A stretch of DNA of 63,026 nt, filler included, from Platydemus manokwari (lineage: Eukaryota): NCBI GenBank assembly GCA_037951405.1. It is 6 parts of 6 records of this genome, joined end to end, with 100 filler letters (N's around TTAATTAATTAA, not from the genome) between each part and the next. Parts side by side here need not be neighbours in the genome. Positions count along the whole stretch, not along the records: positions 43,665 to 52,891 come from JBBMOY011280429.1; 5 more parts are not named here. One strand, 5' to 3'. The notes under the pieces are model-generated. The model was given only the letters and a program-made list of their open reading frames with translations, was not told the origin of the DNA and did not search any database. This document shows positions 5,232 through 55,800 of this stretch, in pieces; the first letter of the stretch is position 1, and every line of letters begins with the position of its first letter. The translations under genes and the position numbers were made by a program.

Positions 5232-6663
5232 TTTTATTTTTCCAAAGATTAATCAATAAATAATAAAAGAAAAAAATTAAATTAAAAAATTAATTTTATT
5301 ATTTATTGGATAAAAAATTATTTAAAAATAAATTTTAAAATATACATTTGAAATCTACATTTAAAAACAAGCAAATTTTAAATAATATTATTAAAATTAA
5401 TAAACTCTCAATAAATTTTAAAAAATGAAATAGAGATAAGTATTTTATGCTTGATTTATTCATTATAATTAGAAATTTTTAATATAGATAAATATTTAAC
5501 CATCCTATAATAGGCTTTATTTCACAAAAACAAGAATTTTTGCAATAATGTTTATTAATTATAAATTATCATCATAAAATTGGTTGGATTTACATTTTGA
5601 AAAACAACTTTAAATTCATATGATTAAAACTAATTAAATTAAAGTGCAACAAATATGTTTAAACGTTTATGAACAAAGTCAATAAGCATTAGTTTTTAAA
5701 TATGTTAACGATTTTTATATTTACATAAGAAATATTTTCCAAAATAATATTAATTTTTTATAAATTTACCTAAATACGTCTGCATTCAAAGAAGTTTCTT
5801 TCATCACAATCTATATCTTCAAATATTTTTCACTTCCAAATATTTTTCACATCAACGAAACACAAACAGATTTCAGCAGTCGTCTCCTAAATAGAATATA
5901 AGTATTCAAGACTATCAATCTAGAGTCAATTTGACATAATCTGAATCACAAGCTCGATTGTAATAAGAAATATTGACAATGAAAGACAATGGATCGAAAA
6001 AATAGGGAGTGAAGAAAAATATAAACCAATGATTAAAAAAATAAATTGTTGGGATGAAAAAATGAAGGTGGCCGTAGCAGTTGTGAGAATATTGATAATA
6101 ACGAGAGTATTAAAAATTGAAGTATTGAAGAACAAAATTAGAGGCTTATATGATTTGTTTTGAGTAAATTTCGAATATAATTTGAAATATGGTGAATGAT
6201 TTTTGTGGAATTTAAAACCAATGATGTACAGTTATGTCGTCGCAGCTTTTGATGAAATCAATTAATTCTGGATTCATTAAGGCAATACTGAAAATGTTAG
6301 ATTTTATATCATTTACTTGTAAAAGAAATATAATTTTTGTGCATTAATAAATTTTTATATTTTTGAACCATAAATTTTATACAAAAAATTTTTACATGAG
6401 TTTTTTTCATAAAATTATCACAAAATATTTACAAATAAATCATATTCATGCCAAAAGTCAAAGAGTTAAGATAAAATCACTAATGAGTCAAATCAAAAAT
6501 CACTAATTGTCTTCATCAATATCCATCTTACACTTGGGTTTTTGCAAGCTTTGATAGGAAGATTGAAATTGAGATTGTTGGGATCTGGGTCTTATCTTGA
6601 GGTAGACTGAAGACAGGGATTATGAAGATGATCCCACTGTGGACATTGATGGTTGTAGAGATA

Positions 6664-7130
6664 TGTTGGGTTTTGGTCTTATAAGTTATCACTCCCAACA
6701 AAAATGAGTTCTTTAAAGCTGATCTGATTTAAATTCAATTCAACTCACTCGATATATAAAAATATATTATCGATTAAGATCACAGCTGTATGAATTCGTA
6801 AAACAATTATTAAATAATAAATCAAAACCAACAACACTTTTATAAGAAAAGTGCGCTATTGCAGATCAAAAACAAATTACCAAGTTTTTCAGAATAATTT
6901 ACAATTAAAAATTATTGATTTATTAATAAATCGGACCCACAAGCAAAATTATTTGATCAGCAACAAACTTAAGTTTAGCACAAACAATTTAAGGTATGTG
7001 AGTGGTCGATTCGAATTTGACGAAACGACCTATAAGTAATGATTTTGAATAATATAGATTTTAAAATGTTTTTATTCTGGCAATTTCCGCACCTTTGAGC
7101 TGCTTCTGTTTAAGCAAAGTATCCAATACC
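6664..7130 (-). repeat. 3' part of an LTR, homologous to the 3' part of solo LTR 48979-50315
   Basis: Colinear shared blocks with ~49840-50315 (reverse complement of 6664-7130 vs plus strand): aaggtgcggaa, ttttaaaatctatatt, tataggtc, gaatcg.ccactcac, ggtccgatttattaataaat, atcagatca, gaactca, tgttgggagt, cttataag, accaaaacccaaca (terminal CA). Confidence 0.8.
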
Positions 7131-7449: not shown

Positions 7450-9588
7450 GCTATCACTGTTACTTTTTAATTCCTCTTTTTTGACTCGTTTTTTGGTTTT
7501 CTGAGAAGCTCTTTTAAATATTGGTATTTCTTTTTAAATGATTGTTTTCTAGCTCTTTCTTGTTCCCATTCCATTTTCTTTACTCGGCAGCTTAATTGCT
7601 CTAGCTCAATGAGCTGATTAGCTTTATACTCCTCAAACGGTACTCCCGATTTAATGATGTGTATTGCCTCGTCTACGCTGTCTATTTCGACTTTCTGTGA
7701 GTCGCCTGTATAATGCGTATTTTCATGCAGCTTCGATTGATAACAGCAATTATATTGATGGTGTTCGATTACATATACATCTGGGAATCCCGCTTTCTGC
7801 CTTTATTCTACTGCGGACACTTTTGTTTGAATTTCTTTCCAAGCTAAGTGTTTTGCCAATACTGGACAGAAGCATGCAGCCCTCTTCCAACCCTTCGTGT
7901 ACATTTTTTTCTAGTTGTTTATAGGACAGTAGTTAGGTGAATAGCAGCTTGGTCATCATTGCCACATAATAAATACCTACGAAAAATGAGAAGAAATTGT
8001 CCCCACAATCCTTGCAGTATGTTCATTGCTGCTTTTTTATAATGATCTGCACTTAATATCGCCTCATAATTGTATTCTTTTCCGCTTTGGTTTCCGTCTA
8101 TGATCCTTTGTACCATGAAAGAGATAACTTTGTCTTTTACTATTGGATACAGCAGGTGTTTTCTAACCCGCTCAATATCTTGCGGTGAGTAGAGACCGCT
8201 TTTTTCCATGTCTGCTATTGTTTGGAACTCTATTCCCCTTGATGTGCCGTTTAATTCTAATTTCTTGGACTTTTGCAGCTAGTCGCCTATCTGGAGTCGT
8301 TATCCATTGGTCTTTCCCAATCTCATACATTGGCTCGAGGGGGTTTAAGCACGAATCGATTTCCTTGGGTTTGTTTTTCCAATCTGTCAATATTCTTGTA
8401 ACAGACAGCACGTATACCATTTTCCCTTGATACATCATTGCTAACACATTTGCTCATTTGGCACGTGTGCTAGCATAACTTGGACCGCTTGACATTTGAA
8501 GGTGTGCAACACTTCTCCGACTACTCTGGCAAAAATTCCTCTTTTTTTAAACACCACTGGTGCCATTAGTTCTGGACTAGTGACAGTTACTGCGATTTTC
8601 GTTAGCAATAATTCTCTATTAATTCTCCAATCATTGGTTATTGTTTCTTGGTATAATTCATACATATGGCCAATTTGTTTATGGTATAAATAATCCATTT
8701 TGTTGTTTACATAAGGCCATTTTTACGTCATGCTTGTCTACCGTTTTTCTGGACTCTTTGATTTGCCTGAGGGTTAAATATATGCCTTTGTAATTGGTTG
8801 ATTTTACCGCTTTGCCGCATTTAACTGCTTCTCCTTTCTCTATGAATCTCATGGCATCTGATGTACTGGTTGATACAAATATCCTTGGCGTTGCTTTTTA
8901 GTGAACAGGTATGTTTCTCGCTTCCTCGTATCTCTTTTTCTTATTTTCATCGGTGGTTGCCTTCCGCTTATTACATAAAAATTTGTTGCTTTTAGGAAGG
9001 CTAAATTGCATGCATACTGATCTATTTGATAAACTATCATAGATTCTCCTGTGTCACAACTGGTTTTATTTGCTGTGTAAAATGAATGTGTCATAATTTT
9101 TCTGGTGGATGTGTCGATCGCTGCTTGAAATTTTCTAAGTTGTTTTTGATACTCGCATTCTACTATTGATGTTTGTTTCCACCCGACTATATTTCTTTGT
9201 TACTGTATTATCTCTCCTAATTTTGCTATTAATTCTATGCCGTGAATTTTTAAAATTTTTGTTTGAAATGCAGGTTCACATTCTATTGTCGTCACTATGG
9301 CTGCTATCGGACTGTATGTTGGCTTTAGTGTTGTCGTGTATCCTCCGTTGTTTGAGCAATAGAAAACAGACTCTTGGTATGTTACAATACATTCTTTGCT
9401 ATTGTTCTTATGAAGTCTCCTTGATAAACATGGTATAACTTCTTCCCTTCCTGTACCATGGCCACAGGATTTACCTCCGGGCAATCCTTAATATCGAATA
9501 ATGAATATTTCTGCTCCATTTTTGGCTTTGCACAGTCAAAGGCTACGATTATTTCAAAAATAGTCATTACAACTAGCAGTAATTTCAT
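7450..9588 (-). pseudogene. Chuvirus-type (gB-like class III) fusion glycoprotein / env, copy 1, frameshifted
   Basis: Signal peptide MKLLLVVMTIFEIIVA then FDCAKPKMEQKYSLFDIKDCPE. Also NNKMDYLY, GIFARVVGEVLHTFKC, TRIL, PMYEIGKDQW, SGLYSPQDIERVRKHLLYP and TM FSFFVGIYYVAMMTKLLF. These match the recalled chuvirus G pattern (YDC..SLLD..C; GEV.H..KC; SGIY...D.......I.FP). Basic KIRKR is a possible furin site. Confidence 0.8.
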
Positions 9589-12087
9589 GATAGTTGGATT
9601 TACTTTGGCCAACTTTTTGGCTTTCTTTATGGCCTCTTTTTGTTTGATTTCTCTCGTTGTTGGACTGCTTGAGTCGGTTGATAAATCATCGTTTTTTTCT
9701 AAAAGCATCTTTTTCAACGCCGGTTTGCCTATTATACGCTTTGATCTTTCTTCTTCGATTTCTTGGTCACTATCGCTTTCAGTGAAAATCTTTTTCCGCA
9801 ATTGTTTATGTGCCACCTTGAACTCTGACTCATTTCTTGGTCTTTGCTGCGTGATCAGTGTTCGTAATTCTAATATATCTTTTATTATTCGATTATTTCT
9901 ATCTGCTTTGAGACTTTTCCCATTCTTCTTGTATTTTCGTTATTTTCTCTTCAAAGTTTTTAAATCTATCATCCCATACAGCATCACCGTGACAGCTCTG
10001 TGATGGGGTATACGACAGAGATGGATTCGCTATCGCATTCGTGGTTATTTCTATTGGTGTTATAAAATTATCATGTATTTGCAGCATGCCTTTATCGATC
10101 AAATAGTCATCATCCAGTATTTTTCGGCCTTCGTAAGTCATATTAAATGTTGTGTAAACCATGCCTTTTTCTCTTAGGGCTTTATAAAACCACTTTCTTA
10201 ATTTTCTTCTTGTAGCACAAACATGAAATTTATGGCAGCCATTAATCACATGTTCATAGTCCCATTCGTAATAATACAATGTGGTAATTGGTATTGTTTT
10301 GTGGCATTCCTTATGCTGTCGAATCAATTTGCCCCTTATTTCAATTACTTAATGATATTTATCGCTCTGTCCCCCATAGAAATATATGTTATCTTTTACA
10401 GCAGTGATGTGATCGAATATCTCTGTTATTGCTGTCTTGTTCAAACCTTGTTTAATGCATATGGTACAAGATCTACAGTTTCGTCAATGTGAATCAACAT
10501 ATCTTTTCCCCATCTATCTAGGGTACTTTGTTTCTGTTTACCCAAAAATATAAAAAGACTGATTTGTATTTGCTCCGTTAATTCATTAAGTATATTATCT
10601 TATTACCGTCGTTTCAACCAATACACCTTTGATTACGATTCGGTCTGAAAGTCTATAATGCTCATCTTCACTTTCTTCATTAATATTCTTACAGCGATAA
10701 TTATCGATGTAAGTCTTCATTTACCACAATAAATTGTGGCAGTTTACTTACTTATCAAATTGCTTTCTTATCTAACAAATCAGTTAACAATTCATTCCTT
10801 TACCATTACCAATATGAAATTTGATTTAAGACATAGTATATATCTTCTAGTATATATCAGTGAACTTACAAACATTCAGCTGCATTCATACTTAAATAAA
10901 ATTTTCCGATTTAAGAATAACCGCAACAGATGAAAACTCAATTTCAATCTCGATACCAAAAATCATTATCATAAATCATTCTGCAGAGCTATCCAATTTT
11001 ATTTTGAATATTTTTTACTTTAGTTTAGATTGGATTGTTTGGTAATTTATGTTGTTGTATATTTTCTGATTTACCGGTGTGCATGTGTGTATGGCTGCCT
11101 GTTCATGCCTGCCAATGTTCATGTTTAAAAATGTATTTTCAATGTTCCACAGTAAGCGGTTTTGATTCATTAACTTCGCATTTCACACAAGTACGAAAGA
11201 AACTTCATCTCCACTGCTAAATTATTTGTATCTGTATTAACGTACCAATATTTAATAATATTACCCACAAAAGATACGATCGGTCTTGGTGTGTCATTTG
11301 ATTTCTATTAAAAGTTTTAGACAGAACTTCAATCACCTTTTCTTTGAGGGTTTTAAAAGTAAATTTCTGCAAACAAATGGGTTTCATGATTATGACGAAT
11401 TATTTTGTTACAATATTGATTATTATTCTTTTATATTCCTCTGGTAAAATCAATTGTAAAACACCATAACCAATCTAATTCAACTATTACGTCAGAACTA
11501 ACGATAAAGAGTTGCTCGAAAATCATCCCAAAGTTTTAGATTTACCAGAAAATAACTTTCAACGATAATTATTGAAATAAGTATTGAGTAGAAATTAAAA
11601 CAAAGTAAGTCGTTATGCTGTCAAATAATCACAGATTAATTTCAGATGATTGAACAGCTTATTATGAAAGCAGCAGGCAGACTTTTATTTTCAGCAAGCC
11701 GCGCAGAATTCAAGTGCTTTAAAAATCTGCTAATCTTCAGTAAAAACGATTTTAAATTTTCAGCATACCATATGTTAAAATTTTTGAGGTGATTCTTGGC
11801 TTTATCAGATAAATCTGCATGTTGAAGGATATTATGTATCTATTTATTGTATTAATTTATAAATTATTGAATGGTTTATTTATTCGTTTGATATTGTTTA
11901 TATCTTGAACGCAATGAAAATCAAAATTTAACTTCGAATTGCTTTGAAAATGTAAATAAAATATTAAATTCAAAACTTTTCATTAAATAATGTTCATCAA
12001 AAACCGTATTTGGTTTGTCAAATGAAGAATTATAAATCTAAAATTTGTATAAGATTTTATATAGTATCACTTATTAATAACTTATTA

Positions 12088-12187
12088 NNNNNNNNNNNNN
12101 NNNNNNNNNNNNNNNNNNNNNNNNNNNNNNNTTAATTAATTAANNNNNNNNNNNNNNNNNNNNNNNNNNNNNNNNNNNNNNNNNNNN
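12088..12187. other. Artificial contig linker (N44-TTAATTAATTAA-N44)
   Basis: 100-bp N run with a central six-frame stop 12-mer. Confidence 0.98.
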
Positions 12188-23173: not shown

Positions 23174-24000
23174 ATTTATTATTAATTGAAAAAGGAATAA
23201 GAGGAGGAATTAGTTCAGTTCATGGAAATAGAAAAGTTATTTCAAATAATGGAATAAAAAATCAAAATTTTGATTATTATTATAAACCAGAAAGATATGA
23301 ATGGGATCAAATAATCAATTATTCAAAAAAAGATAATTTTGATATGTCTAATTATTTTAAAGAAAGAATATCAAAGTACTATGATGCAAATTCATTATAT
23401 GCTACTTGTATGACAAAACCTTTATTAACAGGAGAAATTGAAGAAGTTGAACCAATCTATGAATCAACGGTATCAGATGAAATAGGATTTATTTATAAAG
23501 TTGATTTGAAATATCCGAAAGAAATTCATGATAAAACAAAATATTTTCCATTATGTCCAGAAAAATTTTAAGTTGTTGATAGTTTATTATCAGAGTATCA
23601 ACTAAATAATCGATCTAGTGTTATAAAAGATGGGAATGGTATTTATTCAGAAAAACTAATGTTAACTCAATTTAATAAATGGAATTATATTGTAGAAGGA
23701 TCTTTATTAGATTATTACATTAAACAATGAATGATTTTAATAAAATTCCATAAAAAACTAAAATTAAAAAAACCAAGATGGTTAGAAGGATATATAAAAC
23801 ATAATATTGAACAAAGAACTAAAGCAAAGAATGAAGGAGATAAATTTGGAGAAGAATTTTTCAAACTTTTAAATAATTCATTTTATGGAAAAACAATTGG
23901 AAGATGTTAGAAAAAGATTGAATATATCAATAGTTTCATCTGATAGAGAATTTCAATTATTAGCATTGAAATTAACATTCAAAAGAGCAAAGATATTCAC
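23174..24000 (+). pseudogene. Protein-primed-type family B DNA polymerase fragment (Maverick/Polinton/adintovirus-like)
   Basis: IEKGIRGGIS, YYDANSLYATCM (motif A), GFIYKVDLKYPKEIHD...PLCPE, FFKLLNNSFYGKTI (motif B). Contains in-frame stops. Confidence 0.85.
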
Positions 24001-29300: not shown

Positions 29301-32300
29301 GCTAGATTTATTGAATCCCAATAAACCTAATATCTGTCTCAAATGGAGAAATATAGAATTCACTTCCACTAACAAGGCCACTAAAGCATAACCGACAAAC
29401 AAACGAGTAACCACGGAAATGCCAAAACAAATTAAAATCTAAAATGAAAGAAAAATAGATATAATATAAAATTCACCAAAATCAATCTCACTATGAAATG
29501 GTGAAATACTAGTTCATATGATTGTCTTCCTGGTCCCTTGGTGATCATGTCAAATGCATCATGGATAAAATAGCCTGAATATCAAAGACTCGAAATAGAA
29601 ATATTTTGATGAAAATCAAAATGAAAACAGTTCCAAAATTCATCAAATTTCAATATTAAAAATAGAAGGACATGGGTTTGACTCGAATTGATATTTTATT
29701 AATTATTAATAGTCTGATAACAATCATGTAAATAAACACTGTAAAAATCGGAAGTTTGAAAACATTGGTCTGTGATGCCTTAAGATAACCTTATAATATT
29801 TATTGTATACAAATATATAAATAATCGATATTCAGTGTTAAGTAAAACTACGTTACAAAATTATTTCACACAGTTTTTATCAAGATCTGCAATTTTTTGT
29901 AACAAATCTTGTACTTTAATAAAGGTCCTGGAAATAAAATATGGATGAGTTTGAAAATATTGCAAGATAGGTTTTCTCATTCGAACATAAAAACATTTAG
30001 AACTGGCGGGAATAGAACAAAAATTATTGATTATTACAAAATAGCAGTCTCAAATCGGAATGATTCAAAAATATACATATTTCGGAAGTCCCGAAACTTA
30101 TATGTACAACATTTAAAAGCAACACGAAAAATAAATCATTGTTTTTCTATAGCTTGGTGCGTGGAGGAACTGATCACTTGATAAAAATTTATGAAAAAAA
30201 GTAGAAATTAAATTAATAAAAATCGATTTATTTCATCTGAAAGTGTTAAAATAAAATTAAGATTAAATCATGGCTTTGAATAATTTCATGGGAGGATAGC
30301 GAATGAGATTGCGTTATATTGTGCTGATAAAGTTCAATAAATGTGTTTTCGTCAGATGGATCCCAAAGAGTATAGAACAAGGAAAATAAAGTATAACAAT
30401 TAAACAATGCTTGAGAACAATTTTGATTTGGGGCTGTATGTCATTTTTCGGTGTTGGAAAAAAAATCTTAGATTTGTACATACAAGCGTTGAGTTTCAAA
30501 AGAATCGAAGGTTGTAATCTGTATTTTCATTCACGAGTACTAATCAATACGATACAAAAACCTCCAAAATTCGACAAAACATAAAAAACACAATCTAAAA
30601 CTTGGCTTTCAACCTGCAGTTTGAAATCAGTATTTACAGTTGAGATTTGTGTGCAAATTTTGTATCACGTTTGTATCACACATTGATTTGATCTTTTATT
30701 TCTCATGTTTCTATTGTATTTATTGATTTTATATACTCGAGATTGATCAATCCTTGTGTATATGTTACCGTGTGACTATGTCTCTTTTTCGAATTATAAT
30801 TTTCCATTTAAGTCAGCTGTGATTGGTTGGTTGCTATGCCTGGATGGTTGTGCAGGCTTGCAAATACTTAAAGTGCAAAATCGTTATTGTTTTTGTGACA
30901 TTTCATCTTTACTCAACACAAATTATTTTAGTTAAAAAATAATAATATCAATGAAAACAATAATTTAAAATTATTAATGCATTTGAGCATAATTGATTTT
31001 GTCTCACACTTTCCAAATAAAATTGTGATATTAATTTGGTGCACTAAAAACTAATGGAAATCAATTTAAAAATGAATTAAAATTAAATCAATCATTTTAA
31101 AATCATTTATAACAATTTTATGCAAAAATTACCTCACATATCCACAAAATTCAATCACAAACAGTTCAAGTGATATTAAAATTTTCAAAAACTAGATTTC
31201 AACATATTTATTGATTTTTAAGGAATTATTGATATAAAACGTCTCGATAATAAATGAAGTAAATTGCTATAAATATTCAACTGTGATTCGAATTAATTAA
31301 TGTCAAACGATGTCATTTTAATAACAGAGATAAGGTGTATCATGATAATATTTTTCCAGAAAAAATTACGAAATTCCGAAAACAAATTAATTAATTAGAC
31401 GTTCCATATTAGAAATCAATAATTAATTAATTTTAAAAATGATTTTCATTTTAAGAGATCTCAAGTTTAATAAGAAATCAATATTTTAATCATTTTAATT
31501 AATTATTGGTATGTTGGATTTGTTTTTTAAAAATATTTTAATCAATAAATAAATTACAGCCAACCCTGTTTAATATGAACATATTTTAATGTGAACATTT
31601 AAGTCCAGAATTATTGGAAATTATATGGTTTACATAGGAAATTATGTTTTATAATACGAACACTGTTTATTTTGAACAATGGACAAAAAATAGTCCAAAA
31701 TAAATCAATAAATTATACAATTGTTGTTTAAATATTTAATTTTTAACTGTCTTTTATGAACATGAAAAACATAAATTCAAAACGAAAGAGAAAAGATTTA
31801 AGTATCGAAGAGAAACGGAAATTGTTAAAATTATTCGATGAAGATAAATGTTGTTCTCAACACCTTCTTTCATCAAAATATAATCTTTCATTAGGCTGTA
31901 TAAATAATCTGAAGAAATCTTTAGATTCCATTTTAAATTCAAACTTGAATATCAAACAAAAATGACAAACACATTGACGTAGTGGATATCAAGTTGATGC
32001 CATCTTCTTATATCAATGATTTCAGATCCAGAGAACAAGAAATATCACTATCAGTGGTGATATACTATAACAAAAAGCATTATAATTAGCAAATCACTTA
32101 AAAAATCATGATTTTAAATCATCATAAAGTTAGCTTGATTTTTTCCTTTCCAGACATATGATATCATCGAAAAAAATTATTGGGGAACCTAAAATCGTAG
32201 ATGAAAGGTATGTTCTTAATTTTAAGAAATTGTGATAAGGTTACACAAGAGATATGATGAAAAAAGGTTGATTTATATCAAGCAATAGTTTGGATTTCGA

Positions 32301-33636
32301 AAGCATGGAATAGTGTAAAACCTGCGACTGTTTCTAATTGTTTTACCAAGTCTTCAAAAAATGCGTATGTTAAAGAAATGAATATCGAATGTGATGATTT
32401 TCCATGTTTTGAAATTAATCCAAAATTTGACGAAGATATCTTGTTTAATTTAGTCGAAACATATGAAAATGAAGAAACAAATGACAATTCTGTTGAAGAG
32501 ATGGAAGAAGATACAGCAATAACAGGATTTGAAGCCTATCAGTATGCAAGAAAACTTGAAAAATCCTTCCAATCTAATATTCCTGATAAGGTGAACAAAA
32601 TATGGGATTTAATTTGAAGAACTTCAAGTAAAAAAAGCATCCAGGCAATTTAAAATCACAGACTTTATTATGTGTCAATGAAATAAAAATTGTGTTAAAT
32701 AGGCGTAATAAATACTTTTTGTGATATCTTTGATATTGTTATGTTAATAGCTGTTTATATTATTTTTTATTTATGAACATTTGAAAAAATCGGAACACTA
32801 ATGTTCATATTGAACAGAGTCGACTGTATAATCAACATTATTTTTTTTAATAATAAATATTATTAATAATAATCATTAAATTAATTTAAATTTCGCGTTC
32901 AACATTTGTTTATTTATTGAAAGCACTTCTCATAACATATTGTTATATTATTAAAATTTAAATATCAATTAAACTTAAAGTGCAAATGTGACACATTTTA
33001 CAAAGTACACCTATTTGTAATTCTGAAGTATCATAATCATTATAATTGCCTAATCACTCTACGGCATATCTAGCCGTAATAATTGGTACTCCCAGACCTT
33101 ATTTGTTCATAAACAGCTAATTATGCATACAATTCTTTCTGAAGCACATATTCAAATCAAATGATTCAGTTAATTTGTGTAATTATACAAGTACAAGAAA
33201 TCAAAATACCTAAGGAAAATGAAACTAAAATTACACTTCCTTTTGTGTGCGTGTTGATTAGGTCCACTCGAATATTTTCGTTTAAATAAAAGCTGGAATG
33301 AAATATTGGAACATTATTCGATGAAAATATCTTTATTCAACATTTATTTGAAAATAATAATCAAAATATATGAATGCGAAAATACTAAAAATCAAATTAA
33401 AAAACTTACCAAAGAACTGATAAAGATCCAGTTATAAATGAATGCAATAAGGACATTAGGACATTTCTATATTTCCAAAAAATTTCCGAAGATTTTAATT
33501 GGGTATTTTTACTGCCATTTTGAGTAATAGAAAGCAACCTCGGTGGTCCCAAAACATTCACAAAATGATTCAAAACGTAAAATATGAGAAAACTAGCAAA
33601 AATTGTAGGCAAAACAATGAATAAAAAACTTTCCAT
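26360..33636 (-). CDS. TLC domain-containing membrane protein (TLCD1/TLCD2-like), 263 aa, 5 exons: 33636-33410, 33292-33210, 29574-29492, 29438-29267, 26586-26360
   Basis: All introns are GT-AG with consistent phases (227+83+83+172+227=792 nt). TLC motifs: WKYRNVLMSLLHS, GYFIHDAFDM, ELVFHH, LLVEVNSIFLHLR, TFVIFR, MNIVLFYRI. Confidence 0.9.
31557..32826 (+). mobile_element. Internally deleted Tigger/pogo (CENP-B-like) DNA transposon in intron 2 of the TLC gene
   Basis: 26-bp TIRs (CAGCCAACCCTGTTTAATATGAACAT vs CAGTCGACTCTGTTCAATATGAACAT, 4 mismatches) with TA on both sides. HTH KRKRKDLSIEEKRKLL, C-terminal AIVWISKAWNSVKPATVSNCF and an acidic tail. The DDE core is deleted. Confidence 0.9.
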
Positions 33637-43664: not shown

Positions 43665-45570
43665 AAGCATTTTAAATCTTCCGAAATGATTTTAACTTGA
43701 TTTAGCAACTTTTCGATGAATATTTTTCGGGGTAACCCGGGGGTTTGCACTATCCATGTTGTAATATCATTTCCCTTACTTATTTCTAGCTGATAGATGG
43801 TTCCACAATTTAAATTGTATATGTTCACCACTCCATTACTACTCTCATGTAATCTGTCATCTGATGTTTGTCAATTTCTTTCTCCTTTAACTTTTAGTTC
43901 TTTTTTATGTTGTAACGTAAATGATTTTGTCTTTTCATTTTTATACTTATTATTTAATATCATCATCTTTCCATATCTACTGAAAACTTTGAACTCCTCT
44001 TTTTCTATATTATTAAAGGTGAAGATCATGACTGGACTGTCGCAAGTCTGAACACAGAGTAACACAATGTTTACGGTTGTTAAAGTTGCTATTCTTGGGA
44101 TTCTCCTCTTATAAATTATTGGTGTCGTGGTATCATTATTTCTCCTTTTTCTACCATACATTATTATCAAAGCTATTGTTATTGTTATGAGTGTTAAGAC
44201 TAGACTGCATATTAGCTACAATTTTAGATACTTAATGTATTGTTCACATTCTTTGACAGTTTCTATCATTTTGATTCTATCTTTTATCATTTTATCTCTT
44301 TCTATTTTTATTTATTCTAATTCTTTTCTCCACTGAATTGCCTTTCCTTTTATTCTGAGATGTTCTCTTTTTTCATCTTTTATTTTCCATTCTGCTTTTT
44401 TTGTCTATAATACGTTATTTTTTTCCTCTTTCTTTTTCCTATTTCATTTTTGTCATTAATTATCTTTGTTTGCCTCCATTCTGGCACATTGATTATTAAC
44501 CTATCCTTACTGGTCGCACAAGATTTAAAGCTTTTTTCACAATTACATTTTTATGTGTATGGATCAGCGTAACAGTGTGTGAACGATATATCATGTGTTC
44601 CTAATGCTGATAATATGATTGTTTTAGATGGTATAGTATTATTTAGCTTTATTTCCTTTTCTTCCTTAATTCTTATTTTTGCATCTATTCCCATTAATGC
44701 TATGAGATAGAATCTTAAGCTATTGGTGTATGGTTTCTGTGATATTCCCATTAACTCCTTCATAGCTTTTTATGCTTTAAATTTCCATTCATTTATGCGA
44801 GGTTTTGGATCTTTTATAATTGCCCTTAAATGTCCAATAACTTCAATTGTTTTCAGTTTACTACTTGCTAACTGTATTATTATTAAGAAATTAACTCTCC
44901 ATTCTTGATTTATTAACTCTTCCCATTTTCCTATTATCGTTATCTCTTCCAATTTCTCTATTTTTCATTTCTCACCATATCCTCGATTACACTTAACTAC
45001 AAATTCTATTCTATATGTTTCATTTTTAACCTGTATTTAACTGAAATCCTTTAACTTTCTCCAATTACATTGTTGTTGACAAACTATTATTGCTCTATTA
45101 TTCTCTATTGTTATGAAATATGGTAGAATGAATTTTCTTCTTATTTCACATACTGTTTTTGTACTTTCTTTTGTCATTATTGATGGCGATGTACTCTTAA
45201 TGCCTTCATTTGTGGTGATATTTTCTACCATGATTGGTAATTTGATTTTGTGACCTTCTATTTTTATTTCACTTATTAGTTCAGAGTTATTGGATTCATT
45301 AGTCTTATTAAAACATTTAACCGGTCTGATCATTAGACTAATTATTAAGGAAACTATTATAATTTTTCCTATTCTCTTAATTGATTTCCTTTTCTTTTCC
45401 TGTTTTAATTCACTTTCTCTTATGGTGTTAATATTTAGAATATATTTTGAGTTTGAGTCGGCTGTTTTCTTAATGTTTCTTATCTTGCTACTGGTTGTTC
45501 TTCTTCAGCTTTCTTACGTCTATTTACATGTACTACTGACGGGTCTTCATTCTTTTTCTTTCTTATAAAC
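43665..45570 (-). pseudogene. Degraded coding region of unknown product, probably retroelement accessory polyprotein
   Basis: Consecutive intronless minus-strand ORF fragments (45037-45333, 44770-44952, 44551-44763, 43871-44170, 43613-43831) with the same A-rich skew as the neighbouring Gypsy. A basic stretch is followed by the hydrophobic segment IATLTTVNIVLLCV. Confidence 0.4.
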
Positions 45571-45998
45571 AAATTTGTATCAGTTGCTTTTGTTGGGGTT
45601 CCGAGAAAAAACAGACTTAAAGACAATGTATGCTTGATATCGATATATATATTTGTATAACCTTTTTATTTATATGTAAATAATGGGATGTGCAAAATAT
45701 TAATTTACCTTTTTTATTTTTTTATTCCTGTTTAAAGAATAATATTAATTGGAAAAAGTTCTAGTCGTTAAACAACAATTTTTAGCTAAAATAATTTAAA
45801 GAAATTCTAATTGAAATATTAAGTTTAAATATTAAATATTTCGAGAATAGTAAAAATCCTTTTATCATATTTTAATATGATAATAATTAAGAATCAAATA
45901 TGGCTAATATTTAGATAAAAACTTAGAATAAATTTGGAATAAATTGATAAAATAGGCTTAATTAAAATGAAAATATTTAAATCATTTTCATTTTTCAA

Positions 45999-47006
45999 CG
46001 TAGCGACTAAAAAATCCAATTATTTAAACCCATATTTTTGTGAATTTCCCGACATTACTCTTACAATAAAATAAAATGTTAACAATTAAACCCGCATGGC
46101 AACCAATGCAGAGAAGGAAATTCTTTTGAATTGTGAAAATTCATCACAATAAAGAATTAAAGCAACCCGCATATTTTATTCATCCCGAATAAAACCCTAT
46201 TGTCACCGAAACCATATATAAGGCAGTTTAAACATCATATGGCTTTCGACCAAATCCGCCTGTTACAAGAAGTCCCATTACATCGAGAGAAAAACTAGAA
46301 TCATTCGTGAAGTGAAGAAGATCATTTGTGCCGTCGAAGCCGCCAATTTCTCTGCAGCCGTTGTTCCAGCATATGCCCTATATTGACTATAGGAAGAGTA
46401 TTGAATAATACTAGCGATTTCCGAAGTGAAGATCACGTAAGAGTAATATCTTGTAAAATCATTATATTTTGCACGTCAAATTATCCCAGCGTTCATTGTA
46501 TATTGTAGTAATTCATAACCATAATCGTATAGTAATATTGTATAAGTAGTAATTTATAATCCCATAATTGTATAACTGTAGTCACAATATAACTTCAAAA
46601 CCCCAATTTGAGTTGACTTAGTGAATTGTTATAAGGTATCACAATTTCATAGTAGTGATCGTCATTGTCATATATCACCTTTTATTTTTATTGGGAATAA
46701 TTTTGATTGATTTAAAGAGGCTGATTTAAATACGAGTGAGGACCGAGTTAAAGTGAATAGCATTAATATTAGTAGGGTTAAGTTAAAGATAAATTACCAA
46801 AATCGATTACTACGCCGATCCACTTATCGTCATATAAGAAGCGATCGTCGAGGCGAAAGAACATCAATAATCATAAGGTTTTGTTGCTACCTGAGGGTCA
46901 ATAACGGACTCACAGCACTGATTGAGTCGTAGAAACGATTCAATCAATTGAAATAAGCAAATAATAATAATAACCATAAAAAAGAGAGTGCCCCCAAAAC
47001 GCTCCA
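45999..47006 (+). mobile_element. Probable LTR (solo or partial) truncating the integrase
   Basis: Ends CGTAGCG and CGCTCCA are each one mismatch from TGTAGCG/CGCTACA. Internal TATATAAG at ~46215. Integrase homology stops at 47007. No TSD found. Confidence 0.4.
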
Positions 47007-47740
47007 CTTTTGCTACCTCATAGGAATCTTTATATGGCCCGTGCAATTTTGGTGAAATTCCCTTTTTAACTTCAGGCCCATAAATCCTAACCTTATCTCA
47101 TATCTTAAATCCATTATTATATTCTTTTTTGTCATGATAATCCTTATATTGTTCTTGTTTAAATTTTAAATTTAATTGCGCACGTAGGTAAATTTCCCCT
47201 AATTTTTCCTTCATTGTTGCTACATACTATTTTTCATCCTTCAATTGCGATGTTTGCGGCAAGAATTCTAGGTCTATAGGAAAATATGTATCTCTCATAT
47301 ACTTTAAATAAAACGATGAATATCCTGTTGTTTTATTTATTGCTGTATTATGGTTTAATATATTCATCCCAATCAGTTTGTTTTTTATTAACAAAATTTG
47401 ACAACATAATTCGGAGTGTCTGATTATATCGCTCTACTAATCCGTGGTCTATATGGCGATGTACTAATTTTCTTGATTTTAAAAACCTCCGTGACTTTTC
47501 TTATGGCATTACTTAAAAAGTCCTTTCCTCTGTCAGTTAACAATTTACGAGGCGCTCCATATTGAAATTTCTTTTTATACTAATAATTTTGCTATTGTCT
47601 CGCTCTTATGAGTTTTAGTCAGAAATGAAATTCGGTTAAAGTTATCGCAAAATACTATTATGTACTTATTGCCTTTTTCTGTTTTCGTCAATGGTCCCAT
47701 TACATCCATTCACACATTTCTATAGGTCTTTCCACTGGTG
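47007..47740 (-). pseudogene. Gypsy integrase (DDE core plus GPY/F region)
   Basis: MDVMGPLTKTEKGNKYIIVFCDNF, YGAPRKLLTDRGKDFLS, TSPY, TTGYSSFYLKY, DKVRIY...KLHGPYKDSYEV. Confidence 0.9.
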
Positions 47741-47879
47741 GTAGTGGTTTTGATGGTTTCTTCCCATTCTATCTTCATATTACTTTCTTCTTTACTTCTT
47801 TTTCCTCTACCAGGTGTTTTATCTAACTTATCTTGCAGTCCATATTTTTCTGTACTCAGCTATTGCTTTTTTCATAGCG

Positions 47880-48978
47880 TTATAAATCGGCATTGCGGTT
47901 TGTGCATATTTTTCTTGAAATCTCCTATAATAGCCTGCCATTCCTAAGAATGTTTCAGCTTCATTTATCGTTGTTGGCTCTGGAAAATTTTCAATTTTCC
48001 CTATTTTAGCTAGGTAGGGTGATATTCCCTTTGATGATATTATATGTTCTAAAATGCTACTTCGGGTCTAGCCCATTCACATTTAGTGGGTTTGATTATT
48101 AATCCTGCCTTTTTTAATCGAAAAAACTCTCTTCCTATATCTATTAAATGTCCCTCGAATGTTGATGAGTACACTAATATGTTGTCTATGTAATCCATTG
48201 CACTTGGTAAATCTGTTAACACTGTATTCATTAATTGTTGAAATGTTACTGGAGCTCTCGTTAATCCAAAAGGCATCTTCACATACTCCTATAATCATTC
48301 TCCAAGGCAAAATGCGGTTTTCTCTGTGTCATCTTCTTTCATTTGACTTGATTAAATCTCTTATTAAGATCTTAGTGTAGTATTTTGCTTCATTAAATTT
48401 ATCAAGAATTTCTCTTATGCTTGGTAATGGGAAAACATCCTGTTTGGTATTCTTATTTAGCTCGCTATAGTCTACATAAAGTCTTATTTCTCCATCTTTC
48501 TTTTTAACTGGAACCATAAGTCTTAAATGGTGATCTACTTTTCCTAACTAATCCGAATTCTTCCATATCTCTTATTTGTCTTTCTGCTTCCTCTAATAAT
48601 TTATACGGCATCCTTTTAGATGGTAATTTAATTGGGGTGTTATCTGTCATTATTATCACATGTTCTATTATTGCTGTTGATCCTACGTCATATTTATGTT
48701 TAGCCATTAAATCACTGTATCTATCAATTATTTGTTGTAATTTCTCATTATGTTCTGATGTTAAATATTCCTTTTGTATCTTAACTTCTCTATATTTTTT
48801 AATTCTCTCAGGTATATTTGAGTGTATAACTGCTATGATTTTCGCTTTAACTAGCTTTTCTATTGTTTCACCTTGATGCAGTATTTTGTCCTCGGTATCA
48901 TAATTTATTATGTATACTGGAAAGTATCCATCTTTTATTTGCGCTACGGTGTTAATTATTTTAATATTCTCATCCATT
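47880..48978 (-). pseudogene. Gypsy reverse transcriptase (with end of PR-RT spacer)
   Basis: IEHVI...PIK...RMPY, VPVKKKDGEIRLYVDYSELN, MPFGLTRAPVTFQQLMN, YIDNILVYS (YxDD mutated), FLGMAGYYRRF. Frameshifted. Confidence 0.92.
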
Positions 48979-50315
48979 TGTTGAGAAAGCCCCTCCAACG
49001 CTCCAAGTACATTTCATCATATACCCTTTGATGCCCCGAGCATATCTTATCATATACCCTCTGCTGCCCCGAGCATATCTTATCACATACCATCCAATGC
49101 TCCAAGCACGTCTAACATAACAACCACAAATGCCAATGAAAGCATTTAGCTCGATCAAGATGGCAACTGGGATGGAACGTTTTATCGTGGGGATAAGCAC
49201 GAGAAGATCGGCCGGAAAGAACCCCAAGAAACAATGAAGACGGAACCAATGATCTCGACAGATCCGAGAGAAGAGAATTCCCGATGGTGGTGAATGCACA
49301 AACGTGTGGATATGGACGAACAATATGATCTTGGATTCTCATAAACATTTACATTTAATTTTTACGTTTGATTTATTTCATGATTTTGTCTCTAATCTGT
49401 ATGTCTTATAATATGTAATTATCCAATCCTTCCTCAAATGTACACTGTATTCAAGTATTTGTATAGTGTATTTGTCACAAATTATATTTTCAATCACAAT
49501 TATTATAATGGAAATTTTAACGATAATAAACTTTAAAATAAATCGGACAACAAAAATAATAAATAGCGGGCCTAAAATAACAATATTAGAAAAATTAATT
49601 TAATTTACATAGAATTTTAGAAATGTGTTTAAGTGAGCTAATAATATATAGAAATTCCAAAATATAGAAAATCCTAAATTGTAGAAAATTGAAGAGTAAA
49701 CTGTTTTGAATCTTAGAATAGAATAAAATTAAACCGCCAACGACTGTTTTTATCGTTAGAAGAAGATTAAATCGACAGAAGAAAATTCATAAACGTCTTT
49801 TGCGAGAATGCTGGCAATATTGTATATTACGACAAGCAGGAGTAAATTCTAAGGTGCGGAAGCTGCCTAAACTGAAATAATATATTTTAAAATCTATATT
49901 CTCTAAAATCTTAATATATAGGTCTTTTCGTTAAATAAGAATCGGCCACTCACTAACCTTAACTTGTACGAGCTAAAAATCTAGTTTTCTTGAGGAATAA
50001 ATAAATAAATTGTTTGGTCCGATTTATTAATAAATTAATTGTTCATAATTTTTAATTGTAATTGATAGAACTTTGTGTACTTGTTATAGTTTTCAATAGC
50101 GGATTATTTTAAATTCAATTGTCTTACGTTTTGATTTGAATTAACGATTTTATATAGTAAACAGTTGATATCGTAATCAATAACAGTTTTATTTATAAAT
50201 TGCATTTTTTATAATTGACTGATAATCGAGAGGGTTGATTTGAATTAACATCAGATCAATCTTAAGAACTCACTTGTGTTGGGAGTAACACTCTTATAAG
50301 AACCAAAACCCAACA
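48979..50315 (+). mobile_element. Solo LTR (1337 bp) inserted antisense into the element 2 pol region
   Basis: Termini TGTTG...CAACA and 4-bp TSD CATT (48975-48978 and 50316-50319). Removing it restores the frame ...FMLEPRIM-DENIKIINT.... Confidence 0.9.
48991..49110 (+). repeat. 33-bp tandem repeat (~3.5 units) inside the solo LTR
   Basis: Translates as PSNAPSTFHHI-PFDAPSISYHI-PSAAPSISYHI-PSNAPST. Confidence 0.85.
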
Positions 50316-50965
50316 CATTATTCTGGGTTCTAACATAAATGATTCGTCTTCCTGATTCCTTCCTACAGTTATGCGATATATTCCGCTACTCCATTTTGGA
50401 ATTACTGTATTTTCACATAATTTTAACGCTTTGGATTGATTAAAGACACCAATTGATGTGGTTTTTGTTTTATTGTTTGGATCTTCCGTACTTATGGTTT
50501 GAAAATCTTTTAAGTCTCTTAGCTCATCTCTTGATTTTATTCTTAGTGTACGCAAGTCAAAATATTCCATCCTTTAAGCCTTCCTAATAAATCCATTCCT
50601 ATTAAAACTGCAAATGATGTTTTTTCTATCGCTTTAAACATGTGATCAATTCTTTTATTTTCTATTGTCAACTTTAACTGTAATTTTCCTACCGTTACTA
50701 TAGGTGCTCCTGTTAGTGTATCTGTATTTACATCTATGCTTTCTATTTCTTCCGTTTCTAATATTTTTGTGTTCTCCATGGAGTCATCTGCTCCGGTATC
50801 AATCAACACTTTAACATACCTTCCATTAATTTGTACTACTATTACTGATCTTGTTCCTTTTCCAGGTGTTATCTGAACCATTCTTTTTTGATATAACTGC
50901 GCTTGTATATTTTTCCATCTCTTTTCTAATGCCTTAGTCCTATCTACTGTCTCTTTGATTTGCAT
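50316..50965 (-). pseudogene. Retroviral-type aspartic protease and start of PR-RT spacer
   Basis: VQINGRYVKVLIDTGADDS...VLIGMDLL, followed by a frameshift into W/EYFDLRTLRI. Confidence 0.9.
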
Positions 50966-51062
50966 TCTAGCCTGTAAATCATCTTCTATAAATATTGGTT
51001 TAATTCCATCCGTTGCTGGAGGTGGTTGGTAATATTCCTATGGATGTACATGTGTCTTTCCT

Positions 51063-52815
51063 TTATTTGGCTGATATTGTCGATGAAAAAATCATTTTTA
51101 TCAAAACTATGATGTAATATATTCCAAGAAAGAATGAAAAAACTTGTCTTATCTCTTGGAAACTTGCATACAAACTATAAAACATTCCCTTAATTGCCTT
51201 CTTAAAATGATCCCCAGATAACAAAGCTTCATAGTTGAATGATCCATCTATACTTTCTTGGAATACCTTATGCACCATGTTCATTATGACTTTCTCTTGT
51301 TGTATTGGAAATAACATGTGTTTTCTTGCCTTTTCTATATCTTCTGCTGCATATATCCCGTTATTATCCATGTCATTTACTGGTTGAAATGCTAAATTTC
51401 CTGTTGGTTTATTTGCTTTTAATGTTTTTACATCACTACGTGGTTTTTTGTGATCTGTTTCTATACATCTTCCATTATCAGATCAAAATACAGGATCCAT
51501 TACATATAATTATGTCCTAAAATGATTCTTTGACTGGTTACAAGAATGTCTTCTGATTATTATATATTATCGGCATTTCATTGGTACAATGCTCATGTTT
51601 CCTTACTACAAGGTTTGTCACTATTTTACACTTAAACGTATAGATAACTTCTCCTACAACTCAAGAGAAGATTCCTTTTTCCTCAAATATTATTGGTACG
51701 ACAAGTTCTGGATTTGTTATGGCTAAAGCTAACTTAGTCTTCAAGACTCCCATACTTAGCTTACAATTATTCAAGATTAATTCCATATAAACTTTCTCCA
51801 TTAGTCCTTTAACTAGATGATAGAAATAGTTCAGCTTATTATTAAAGTATTGTGCCAATTTTACATCCAATTTATTGACTTCTTTTTTAGCATCTTTTAT
51901 CTCATTTTCATTTAAATATATCATTTAAATATATATTTGTTACTATAACCATTTGAGCACATCTCCTATCATGCCCCTTATGTATGAATCTCATTGCATT
52001 TTTTCTGTCCTCACTCATTTATACTGTTGGTGTTTCTTTCATTCTTATCTCTGATGTTTCTCTATTAATATCGGGTAAATAACTTTCTACAAATTTTATC
52101 TCCTTAAATATTTTACCACTCACTGCGTGTAATCTTTCCTTTTTTATTAATGTTAATGGACATTGATATGGGTTTGCCCTATACATGATTAATGATATTC
52201 CTGTGTCTCATATTTCTTTTCCATATTCACAATTTATCCATGTTGTCATTTTTTTTAGTTTGTGCGTCAAATGTAGGTTGAAGTTCTCTTAATTCTATTA
52301 TGTAATGCTACTACATTTTCTAATGTCTTATTCCGCACTTGATATTCTGATCTCATACAATATCCTCCTGTTCCTCTCCAACCGCAGGTCCTATTATTTG
52401 TCATGTATTGCCTTTCCCTAATGTTATTGCATATCCTTGTGATGTGCAATATGTTCCTTCTTCAAATGCTTGTTTAGATTTTTCCTCTGTAGGTATTTCT
52501 GGCATTGGTGCCCATGCTGGTTCTAATATTGCTGTGTATGGTCCCGAAGACCATGAACAGTGATATGTTAGCTCTTAGTACATGATTTTGCAATCCCTGG
52601 CTTTTCAAACAGAAATTCGGACTCTTGATACACCTATATATCCTTAGCTATAGATTTTGTTAAATTTACAGGGTATGCCTCTGGACATTTATCGATGTCT
52701 AATAATGAGTATTTTTGTTCCCAATCTGGTTTTCCACAATCGTAACCATCTATTCCTGCATCTGCTCCTCATATTAATCCTACTAGGTATTAGGTGTATT
52801 AGTATGATTCCGGCT
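51063..52815 (-). pseudogene. Chuvirus-type (gB-like class III) fusion glycoprotein / env, copy 2
   Basis: Hydrophobic leader then GIDGYDCGKPDWEQKYSLLDIDKCPEAYPV. Also FNNKLNYFYH, KTKLALAITNPELVVPIIFEEKGIFS*VVGEVIYTFKC, NGIYAAEDIEKARKHMLFP, NYEALLSGDHFKKA and TM FSFFLGIYYIIVLIKMIF. Colinear with copy 1. Confidence 0.8.
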
Positions 52816-52891
52816 TTTTTTTAAAAAAACAAAAACATTTTTTTAAATATTTATTTAATGAAATTCAATCAAAATATTTTCCATTTGCAGA

Positions 52892-52991
52892 NNNNNNNNN
52901 NNNNNNNNNNNNNNNNNNNNNNNNNNNNNNNNNNNTTAATTAATTAANNNNNNNNNNNNNNNNNNNNNNNNNNNNNNNNNNNNNNNNNNNN
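52892..52991. other. Artificial contig linker
   Basis: N44-TTAATTAATTAA-N44. Confidence 0.98.
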
Positions 52992-54823
52992 ACACAAATA
53001 ATAAATTGAACAATTGATACAACATTCAAGGCAAAAATGTTTATTTATAAGGTTAAACAAAAAGGATAATAAGGTTAAACAAAAGGATATCATTAGAGCA
53101 TTTATTGCTATTGTTAATCAATCACGTTTAATAAAAAGTTTATTGTTTATTCATTTGGATATTGTTGGTTGTTGGTTGCGAGCTTTCATTATTGTATTGT
53201 CGAATATTGTTGGGTTGCGAGTTTGAATTGTCAGTAGCGGAGCAGTCCACACTCGGGGTCATTGTGCTTTCATGTTTATGTTTAGGGATTATATTTGGGG
53301 CTTTAGTACTATGTAACTTGTAACTTATTATATATGTAGGGATATTTGCTATATACATGCATGGGGTGTATGCCCAACAAAACTATGCTTGCTTTTTGTT
53401 ACTCGTTTATAATTATAAAATAGGCAGCAATAACTAATTAACACTCATACAATTTTTTTATACAAAAATTAGACTAATATACACCAAAACGACAACAAAA
53501 TCAATTCTGGGAAAGTTTTGGATTAAGAGCCCCTTTGTGGAATTGAAGTTAAATCGATTGCAAGGATGAGATTAGCTCTTTAAATATGAAATATAACGGA
53601 TGATGTAGATTGTAGAATGATTACACAGGAATTAGGCTTACTTTTACTATATAACTGAATTGAATGATCTTCCAAATTAAGACTGTGCATAAACCGGGTT
53701 TGAATAACTTGGACGCTGAATATCGCATATAATTGCTTCAATAAGTGCCATTTGGCTTAGTGATTTCAAAATAGTGCATTGTTTTAAGTTTTTTAGAGTT
53801 ATAATAATTGTCGTAGTGTTGAGTGCACCACCCAACTATTAAATATTTTTTGGGTGGTCGATTTAGTTTAAATATTACTGGTTCCTAGGGGCTTCAGTAA
53901 CTGGTATGAGGACCGAATTACTGGTAAAGTTATGAATTTATATTGAATATCCAGGCGCAGAGGAACTGATGTTGCTCTGAGCCTGAAATGATGAATTAAT
54001 GGTAAATCCCAAACATGATCGAGCTTATTATAAAGTTAATAGGTTTGAAAATAAGTCCCTTCAAACTATATTTATTAGTTATTATTCAATAAAGATTAAA
54101 CGAAATCTTTTGATCTACAATGTTTATATATTATGGAAAAAGAAATACAACAATTAGTATTAAAAAGAATAACAAAAGTTTGTCACAATAACCCGTACCT
54201 TGCCTGAGCGATTAATAGGTGAATCCGTAAAACGGACGAAGCAGATGATTATTATTTAAATTGAGAGATGTTATTCACTGACAATAATGTGGTTATCATT
54301 AATAGTAATAATTAGTATTTAAGTTACAATAGTTTAAGAATAAACGTGGTTACTAAGCAAGCGTTAAATGATGATTCAAAATTAAACACAAAATGGAATC
54401 CTTACTAGTGTCTGGTTATAAGAAAGCTGATCGAAATTAGGTCCACAAAGTTTTAATCCTGCACGATTGGCTAACAGTTGCCAAAGATCCAAAACACAAG
54501 TGTCGGTAGTGTGAGGTTTAAGATTTAAATTGAATTATATTGAATTTAAATTTTTTAAATTAAATTATATTATATTAAATTTAATTATATTAAATTTAAT
54601 TTTTTAAATTAAATTTAATAATTTAAAACAAAGAATAAAAATATTTATTATTTATATTGCTAAGACAATTACTGTAACCTCTCAAAAATGTTTTAAAAAA
54701 TTATTCATAAAATTTAAATGTGTTTAAAAAAATATATTTTATAATAATCGGAATTTTTAAAAGAAATAATATTTGTTTGAATAATGTTTAATATGAAAAT
54801 ATATTTTTTGGACTTTAATAGTT

Positions 54824-55800
54824 ATGGGTTTTCAACATAACCTAAAAAGCGATGAAGTGCTAGCCACTAACATGGCGACCGCGCACTTGGATGCGATCCT
54901 AGATTCGCAGTTGCCACTTAGATTCAAACTGGTGGATAATGTCGAACACTTTATTAAAAAGTGTAATCGATATTTCGAGGCTGGAAAAATCCAAAAGCAC
55001 GTCCAATACGCTATTGTATTACCACGATTGGTCGACGGCTTAGTAGAACAATTTAAGGCGAAGGACGCCAAAATGGGGTACGAGGACAGACTTAGGAAGG
55101 CATTTGGTCAAAGGAAATCCTTCGCCCAGGATTGGATGGAATCTCTAAGTTTTAGGAGGAAGGCCGCTCCGGCTGATGTCTATTTTAAAAAGGTAGATAA
55201 AATGGTGGAAGACATTTTGTCTCACAACATAACTAACTGCTTTCTTCTTGGTGCACTGTGCAGATGATGTGGAGCTAGAGAAAGAAATCAAAATGAGAGA
55301 TATTGGAGAATTGGATCAAATAAAAAAACCGTAAAAAAAACTAATTGAAGTAAGAAATAAAGAAATAGAAGTAAATACGGTGGAAATCGGAGAATGGACC
55401 ACGATAGTCAGATGGCAACCAAAATGCAGGGCTCCGGGAAGGAAAGTAGATAATAGGACGTCCTATAATTACCAAAAAACCAGGGCATATAGCACGAAAT
55501 TGTAAAATCGAGAAAGTAGTGACGAGTAGGTCACATAGCGAGAAATTGCCTAAACGTCATAAAGTGCCGTAGATATCAATACCGAGGACATCACGAGAGT
55601 GAATGTTACACAAATTTAAAGAGAAGGGGACAACAACGTCCATCTTCAAGAAAGGAACATCAATAATACAGCGAAGGTTTGAACACAGACAGGGTAATAA
55701 TAGAATAAATGAAAACAGGCAGAATTTCAAGGGACAAATTACAGAATGGTGAACTGAAATAATAGGCAATTAGGGGCGTTCGTACAAGAATCGGATTCAG
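54824..55800 (+). pseudogene. LTR retrotransposon gag remnant (capsid-like region plus decayed zinc knuckles)
   Basis: VEHFIKKCNRYFE...YEDRLRKAFG, then two GHIARNC motifs (~55484-55503 and ~55530-55550) of CX2CX4HX4C knuckles. Confidence 0.7.

Follow-up and report, generated by a model that had tools for sequence, protein, structure and literature searches.

The 63,026-nucleotide (nt) stretch of Platydemus manokwari DNA analyzed here, hereafter the window, consists of six contigs of about 10 kb each, separated by N spacers and with a GC content of 28.6%. On the minus strand of one of these contigs (43665-52891) lies a retroelement copy that we consider, with high confidence, to be a decayed and truncated Ty3/gypsy element, likely of the Burro/GYPSM1 kind. 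When intact, such an element likely had a single frame for Gag, an envelope glycoprotein (G), Pol, and an additional membrane protein. The order G, protease, reverse transcriptase (RT), and GPY/F integrase on one strand of one contig had been read from the sequence in an earlier note, and it is borne out by Pfam searches of 10 six-frame translations (scanned with stops written as X), by tblastn to relatives, and by a GPY motif of the integrase near 47040. The same holds for the note's identification of a Ty3/gypsy element with a class III-type fusogen before Pol, which agrees with Pfam and with the G-Pol fusions of relatives. The window copy itself is dead: all of its open reading frames (ORFs) are interrupted by stops and frameshifts, two 1.4-kb insertions have entered it, RNase H is lost, and G is shortened. 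The note's description of a potentially infectious element thus does not apply to this decayed copy.

G (51063..52815, minus strand) is a broken, chuvirus/gB-type (class III-like) envelope glycoprotein. It matches the Pfam family PF24664 (Monjiviricetes_fusion) at an E value of 7.1e-17 and 61 bits (cut-off 27), over positions 455-576 of the 653-position profile, and aligns to relatives in collinear tblastn pieces at 26-51%. Its ectodomain is split over about six frame segments with roughly a dozen stops. To find relatives, we searched 1.84 billion representative sequences with phmmer, using as query the longest frame of a second, also broken G on another contig of the window (copy 1; 7810..9600, minus strand; about 40% identical to the G at 51063..52815), the other copy being more fragmented. 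Among the 124 hits, 14 are at least 790 amino acids (aa) long and take 8 of the top 10 ranks, and further down the ranking come stand-alone glycoproteins of about 650 aa, at approximately 20-28% identity. Pfam scans covered 18 of the 124 hits, two cluster members, and a DNA locus (L001), and the comparisons below refer to 16 relatives, namely 12 of the 14 long hits (without P0046 and P0057) together with P0006, P0027, P0125, and L001.

These relatives provide evidence for the architecture of the intact element. A protease motif lies downstream of G in 14 of the 16, and RT follows G in seven and precedes it in none, so that the order seen in the window recurs among the relatives examined. G, protease, RT, RNase H, and integrase are found as a single open frame in relatives. 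CCHC zinc knuckles lie upstream of G in 5 of the 16, with P0046, from outside this set, as a sixth case, and P0016 carries the Pfam family Retrotrans_gag; a set of three knuckles is among the features of the relatives. In no relative does Gag lie between G and the protease. In collinear matches to the same long relatives, the window's G reaches 39-45% in its best piece, its RT 40-53%, and its integrase 29-38%. The L001 locus is one open frame of 3426 codons, in the order G, two proteases, a membrane cassette, a third protease, RT, RNase H, integrase, and a second membrane cassette. Other searches were less productive: a word-based search with a 139-aa piece of G recovered no relative among 249 candidates, two scans of viral contigs gave none, an exact look-up of three window proteins in the protein collection found none present, and metagenome contigs yielded at least one locus among the 593 matched stretches listed. 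One of the relatives, the 2627-aa polyprotein P0002, is filed under a Flavobacteriaceae metagenome bin, which is likely contamination from an animal host.

The class III assignment proposed in the note is also supported by fold. P0006, which is 45% identical to the window G over 130 aa, was modeled from an alignment with 62 other hits, giving a predicted local distance difference test score (pLDDT) of 81. Its best matches among solved structures are herpesvirus gB proteins (herpes simplex virus (HSV) gB, E 9.6e-15, Z 10.4, root-mean-square deviation 8.0 over 417 residues), and its best matches among viral models are glycoproteins of tick and insect negative-strand and chu-like viruses (E 8e-41). 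The G of this relative is therefore predicted to fold like herpes gB, with the window G assigned by Pfam alone.

The region joining G to the protease shows how this copy departs from its relatives. The leader and transmembrane anchor suggested earlier are partly recovered, as a signal remnant and a first hydrophobic segment (~51140-51070) with a stop right after it; G is broken, however, and a second hydrophobic segment of G, present in 12 of the 16 relatives (by pattern), is absent from the G-protease spacer (50861..51062, minus strand). Copy 1 retains this second segment by eye, across a frameshift, and a profile of the segment, which matched neither window copy, is for that reason uninformative. 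From the end of G to the catalytic codon of the protease (50800) there are 89 codons, compared with 98-338 in the 10 relatives, of 12 compared, that carry the motif. As the spacer is shorter than in relatives and lacks the second hydrophobic segment, a small deletion has probably occurred in it. As the note had stated, the contig holds no gag between G and the protease, and the linker shares the reading frame of the latter. The likeness it had seen between this linker and the tail of copy 1 did not survive comparison with shuffled sequences, the best frame being reached by 40 of 500 shuffles and the others by 149 and 242 of 500; neither copy 1 nor the spacers of any of 10 relatives resemble this spacer significantly.

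Membership in Ty3/gypsy is well supported, with a protease, an RT, and an integrase in last position, an RT of Ty3 type, and a GPY/F module. The retropepsin, an aspartic protease (50546..50860, minus strand), matches Pfam RVP at 22.1 bits (cut-off 20.7) as well as gag-asp_proteas and is 32% identical to P0002 and L001. It is followed by the first half of a protease-RT spacer domain (50320..50545, minus strand; open frame 50573-50265), placed by its position in relatives, in which a homologous spacer is present; this half has no Pfam match, and no Pfam dUTPase match was obtained for the domain in the window or in relatives. The second half of the domain and the RT (47867..48974, minus strand) are frameshifted, with a degenerate catalytic motif; the RT matches Pfam RVT_1 (E 7.7e-10), and its best match among solved structures is the Ty3 RT (E 4.2e-11, with four sequences matched in all). 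A deletion scar comes next (47757..47866, minus strand), where 111 nt stand in place of the 276-316 aa found in all five relatives compared, and this copy has neither RNase H nor an integrase zinc finger. The integrase core with its GPY/F module (47006..47756, minus strand) is frameshifted and falls below the Pfam cut-off for rve (E 0.042), but is clear by tblastn to P0002, P0003, P0125, and L001 (about E 1e-41). The rest of the integrase C-terminus (45470..45585, minus strand) has a VHVNR motif near 45533 that also comes after GPY in P0002, P0003, P0020, P0125, and L001, and gives a weak blastp match to P0003 (E 0.017).

Two insertions of about 1.4 kb interrupt this series, as single contigs of other copies join their flanks and the base skew agrees. 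Insertion 1 (48975..50319, ~1.35-1.4 kb) divides the spacer domain and is bridged by a joint at 48968-50370 in one contig of another copy; insertion 2 (45586..47005, 1.42 kb) lies within the C-terminal part of the integrase and is bridged by joints at 45585-47006 and 45581-47027. The AT skew is +0.04 and +0.07 in the two insertions, against -0.22 to -0.33 in five parts of the element. Insertion 1 consists in part of a repeat found also at 6661-7098. This interspersed repeat (6661-7098 and 49848-50318, on opposite strands, 69% over 487 nt by blastn) thus occurs in or beside both G-bearing copies.

Beyond the integrase, the window copy continues into a decayed frame of about 600 codons (43665..45469, minus strand), which stop counts, hydropathy, and the layout of relatives suggest to be a second membrane protein. 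It contains 1-2 stops per 300 nt, against 9-20 in the other frames, and has a signal-like segment (~45372-45313), then an ectodomain, an anchor (44215-44159, hydropathy 2.82), and a tail up to the contig end. A signal-like segment and a later anchor follow the integrase in all five relatives that extend there (P0002, P0003, P0020, P0125, and L001; weakest in P0020), and the signal-anchor layout in this position is conserved. In sequence comparisons, the window's frame matches no Pfam family, pairwise scores between the relatives' cassettes and the window's ectodomain are E 0.11 or worse, the five-row alignment of the cassettes is of poor quality, and a single-sequence fold of the P0002 ectodomain reaches a pLDDT of 33. 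The cassettes of four of the five relatives share a short motif, which we take to be fibronectin-III-like, and the Atlas look-alikes of the L001 cassette are fn3 clusters (0.87-0.89, with low recognition, and to be read as a lead only). A fibronectin-III-like nature of the cassette is thus a weak lead. We found no description in the literature of this cassette or of the repeated proteases, although Repbase entries, figures, Sacco 2022, or Grohme 2018 may contain one.

Several features of the relatives' frames can be noted here. In L001, the two signal-ectodomain-anchor cassettes are located at 4754-5335, between proteases, and at 9044-10057, after the integrase, in the same frame, and a separate downstream ORF (10617-12107) encodes a DEDD-type exonuclease domain (Pfam RNase_T, E 1.4e-5). 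Retropepsin domains number two to six per polyprotein in P0001, P0003, P0004, P0005, P0016, P0125, and L001, some of them past the integrase. A Bcl-2-like helical domain directly precedes the G signal in P0001, P0006, P0015, P0046, and L001 (893-1258); four of five motif-picked segments match Pfam Bcl-2 (best E 2.2e-5), and Atlas gave no consistent family for the helical region before G in L001. It is pure speculation that the G signal might double as a tail anchor of this domain. Ankyrin repeats are found in one relative, a frame of 4844 aa. Neither Bcl-2-like nor ankyrin cargo was found in the window, where that region falls beyond the contig end.

An envelope gene before pol, which the note set against the usual order of retroviruses and errantiviruses, is already known from flatworms (PMC6431247; PMC13524379). 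Burro/GYPSM1 (Arkhipova and Yushenova 2019; PMC6431247) is a giant Ty3/gypsy element of planarians. Its single frame, 4873-5140 aa long, includes Gag with knuckles, ubiquitin-like, Bcl-2-like, and ankyrin domains as cargo, and an env that has hits to mononegavirus fusion glycoproteins and lies in frame between gag and pol; decayed copies occur in Dugesia japonica, and a dUTPase-like domain is placed between protease and RT. The window element resembles it in having env before pol and an extra domain between protease and RT, and its relatives share the Bcl-2-like, ankyrin, and multi-knuckle cargo (PMC6431247). It differs from that account in the several proteases of its relatives and in the post-integrase membrane protein, neither of which is mentioned in the available text of PMC6431247. 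Judging from these shared features, membership in Burro proper is likely.

A recent study (Chary and Hayashi 2026; PMC13524379) describes GAG-ENV-POL Ty3/gypsy elements whose env is of gB type from flatworms, nematodes, and bryozoans; Schmidtea mediterranea has six, present in up to 215 copies. It also indicates that such elements are not one clade and that ENV-GAG-POL elements occur in oribatid mites. The window element is similar to these errantiviruses in its HSV/gB-type env less than 2 kb upstream of a Ty3/gypsy pol and in being multi-copy, whereas the elements of Platyhelminthes group C1a, for example Smed_errantivirus_3, are intact and the window copy is a fossil (PMC13524379). The words "polyprotein," "fused," and "fibronectin" are absent from the main text of PMC13524379. 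Both window copies contain short motifs from domains I-II of the env of Smed_errantivirus_2 and _3, which none of the 129 proteins collected in our analysis has; three of these motifs were held by 0, 0, and 1 of 200 shuffles, which makes the link look stronger than it is, since the motifs were picked after sight. Non-canonical endogenous retroviruses (ERVs) of nematodes also have env and pol flipped (Sacco et al. 2022, as cited in PMC13524379). Their host differs, being nematodes, and the likeness is by description only. These nematode ERVs reportedly carry a continuous gag-env-pro-pol frame.

Capture of a chuvirus G had been regarded in the note as best described for BEL/Pao elements. Such cases are indeed on record, in Anakin, a BEL/Pao element of mosquitoes (PMC7642597), and in BEL/Pao elements and arthropod genomes more widely (Dezordi 2020 and 2023), but chuvirus-like G beside a gypsy pol is on record too, with 114 arthropod elements given in the methods of PMC13524379. 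Anakin shares the glycoprotein family with the window element and differs in its BEL/Pao backbone (PMC7642597); a BEL/Pao-type pol can be ruled out here, as the RT is closest to Ty3, the protease families are of gypsy type, and GPY/F is present. Troyka, another long terminal repeat (LTR) retroelement of aquatic animals with the order protease, RT, RNase H, and integrase, is likewise ruled out, having neither env nor GPY/F, both of which are found in the window element (PMC12440569).

Several points weigh against the reading of a decayed Burro-like polyprotein element. The probable kinship with Burro is by description, and the link to the Smed elements is through by-eye motifs chosen after the fact. 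A profile built from the cassette segments of the five relatives did not pick up the frame after the integrase in the window, its best match (E 0.17) falling elsewhere. In addition, gag, the LTRs, the primer site, and the size of the element are out of view because of the contig ends. At the junction itself, a stop and a change of frame separate G from the protease in the window copy, the fusion being seen in relatives only, the homology of G ends sharply at 51066, and summed depth drops over 50749-51056 (1337, vs 4377 and 7429 alongside). These last features would also be expected if a fragment of a chuvirus-like G had come to lie beside an unrelated gypsy pol in a single event, by nesting or deletion near 51060, and the different junction of another copy begins at the same base. 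That copy, however, continues from the end of G into sequence immediately beyond the protease (joint 50546-51066, seen in a single contig whose shorter side has 32 letters) and so also links G to pol sequence, the intact sequences closest to G are fusions of G and Pol that also match the window's Pol, and strand bias is uniform over G, protease, RT, and integrase. We therefore regard a one-off joining as very improbable. The note's suggestion that G is fused to Pol accordingly stands for the intact relatives and fails for the window copy.

Misassembly around 51000 is a further alternative, given a fragmented assembly and a high-copy family, of which 5381 contigs of one public sequencing run align to the element's contig. 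An 824-nt contig of that run covers 50375-51198 with no differences, although the run may be the assembly's own source and does not count as independent evidence, and the gene order is that of the intact relatives; we consider an artefact scarcely credible. The aligned contigs (981 at 99% or more, 1416 below 90%) point to a family with many diverged copies, as these two counts suggest; their depth does not amount to a copy number, and the joints examined were 15 of 126.

The third alternative concerns gag, which is not visible in the window copy, as would be the case in a lineage having env and pol and no gag, or in an ENV-GAG-POL element of the oribatid-mite type (PMC13524379) that lost gag at the junction; copy 1, too, is flanked by about 400 and 250 codons without a Gag family. 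Against this, the contig ends, at the N spacer (52892..52991), only 76 nt from the start of G, so that the upstream sequence, where a gag and the 5' LTR would lie, is out of sight. Six relatives have Gag upstream of G and none has it between G and the protease, and the G-protease distance is near that of the shortest relative (89 vs 98 codons). Since Gag knuckles precede G in relatives, gag is expected past the contig end, and we regard a gag-less or ENV-GAG-POL origin as improbable. No long direct repeat (LTR) was found within the contig, the element running off both of its ends, and an ad hoc primer-site pattern, itself uninformative, had no match.

Copy 1 (9600-7100, minus strand) is flanked by decayed coding sequence, of which neither the 400 or so codons upstream nor the 250 or so downstream match Gag or give a convincing Pfam family; a repeat interrupts at about 7098 before any protease can be recognized. 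Copy 1 has an 11-residue exact motif in common with the published Smed_errantivirus_3. Elsewhere in the window, a remnant of a different gypsy pol, with the end of an RT and RNase H, lies at 19816-19297 (minus strand), and another contig has a decayed gag-like frame at 54797-55700 (plus strand) with zinc-knuckle-like motifs by eye, no Pfam hit, and no link shown to the element. An uninterrupted TAF2 gene of 936 codons (5231-2424, minus strand) is 43-54% identical to three database hits. A planarian host for the element is likely from the closeness of motifs, base composition, and the literature, with TAF2 not decisive on this point. Three further fragments resemble, by eye, a Polinton-type DNA polymerase (23176-23568, plus strand), a pogo/Tigger-type transposase (32261-32614, plus strand), and chromatin assembly factor 1A (62109-61483, minus strand).

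How might such a frame have been expressed? In the scheme we propose for the intact element, an internal signal would thread G into the endoplasmic reticulum, with signal peptidase freeing G from Gag; the G anchor would bring the chain back to the cytosolic side, and retropepsin, of which relatives have one to several copies, would release Pol there; and the second signal and anchor after the integrase would yield another type I membrane protein. G trimers on budding particles could then fuse membranes, allowing the element to move between host cells. In this scheme the element would act as an errantivirus with an env does, from a genome rearranged into a single frame. The window copy is unable to perform these steps. 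More broadly, and tentatively, since we think it on balance unlikely to be right, Burro-like elements may be enveloped retroviruses that make a two-part entry machine from one multi-pass polyprotein, consisting of a gB-type fusogen and a fast-evolving, fibronectin-III-like attachment protein after the integrase (sometimes inside Pol), cut by signal peptides and tandem retropepsins in a flavivirus-like rather than a retrovirus topology. A different function, compatible with the same classification, is possible if somewhat doubtful: an intracellular retrotransposon could use G and the second membrane protein for anchoring assembly or manipulating the host cell. One frame would give equal amounts of Gag, Env, and Pol, unlike most retroviruses, and the cargo domains are of apoptosis type, both of which would suit such a role. 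Copy number is also no direct evidence of activity (PMC13524379). On the other hand, G remains whole, and its cysteines, signal, and anchor are conserved, in relatives only 33-55% alike, and its fold is gB-like.

The window copy thus adds a fossil to a family already described and illustrates how a contig end can make a gag-env-pol element seem gag-less. Its remaining interest lies in the cassette conserved after the integrase and in the repeated proteases. Whether planarian elements are real viruses is a question raised for this family before (PMC6431247). If the cassette is the receptor-binding partner of the fusogen, it would provide a handle on that question, and on how one frame can yield cytosolic enzymes together with two surface proteins.

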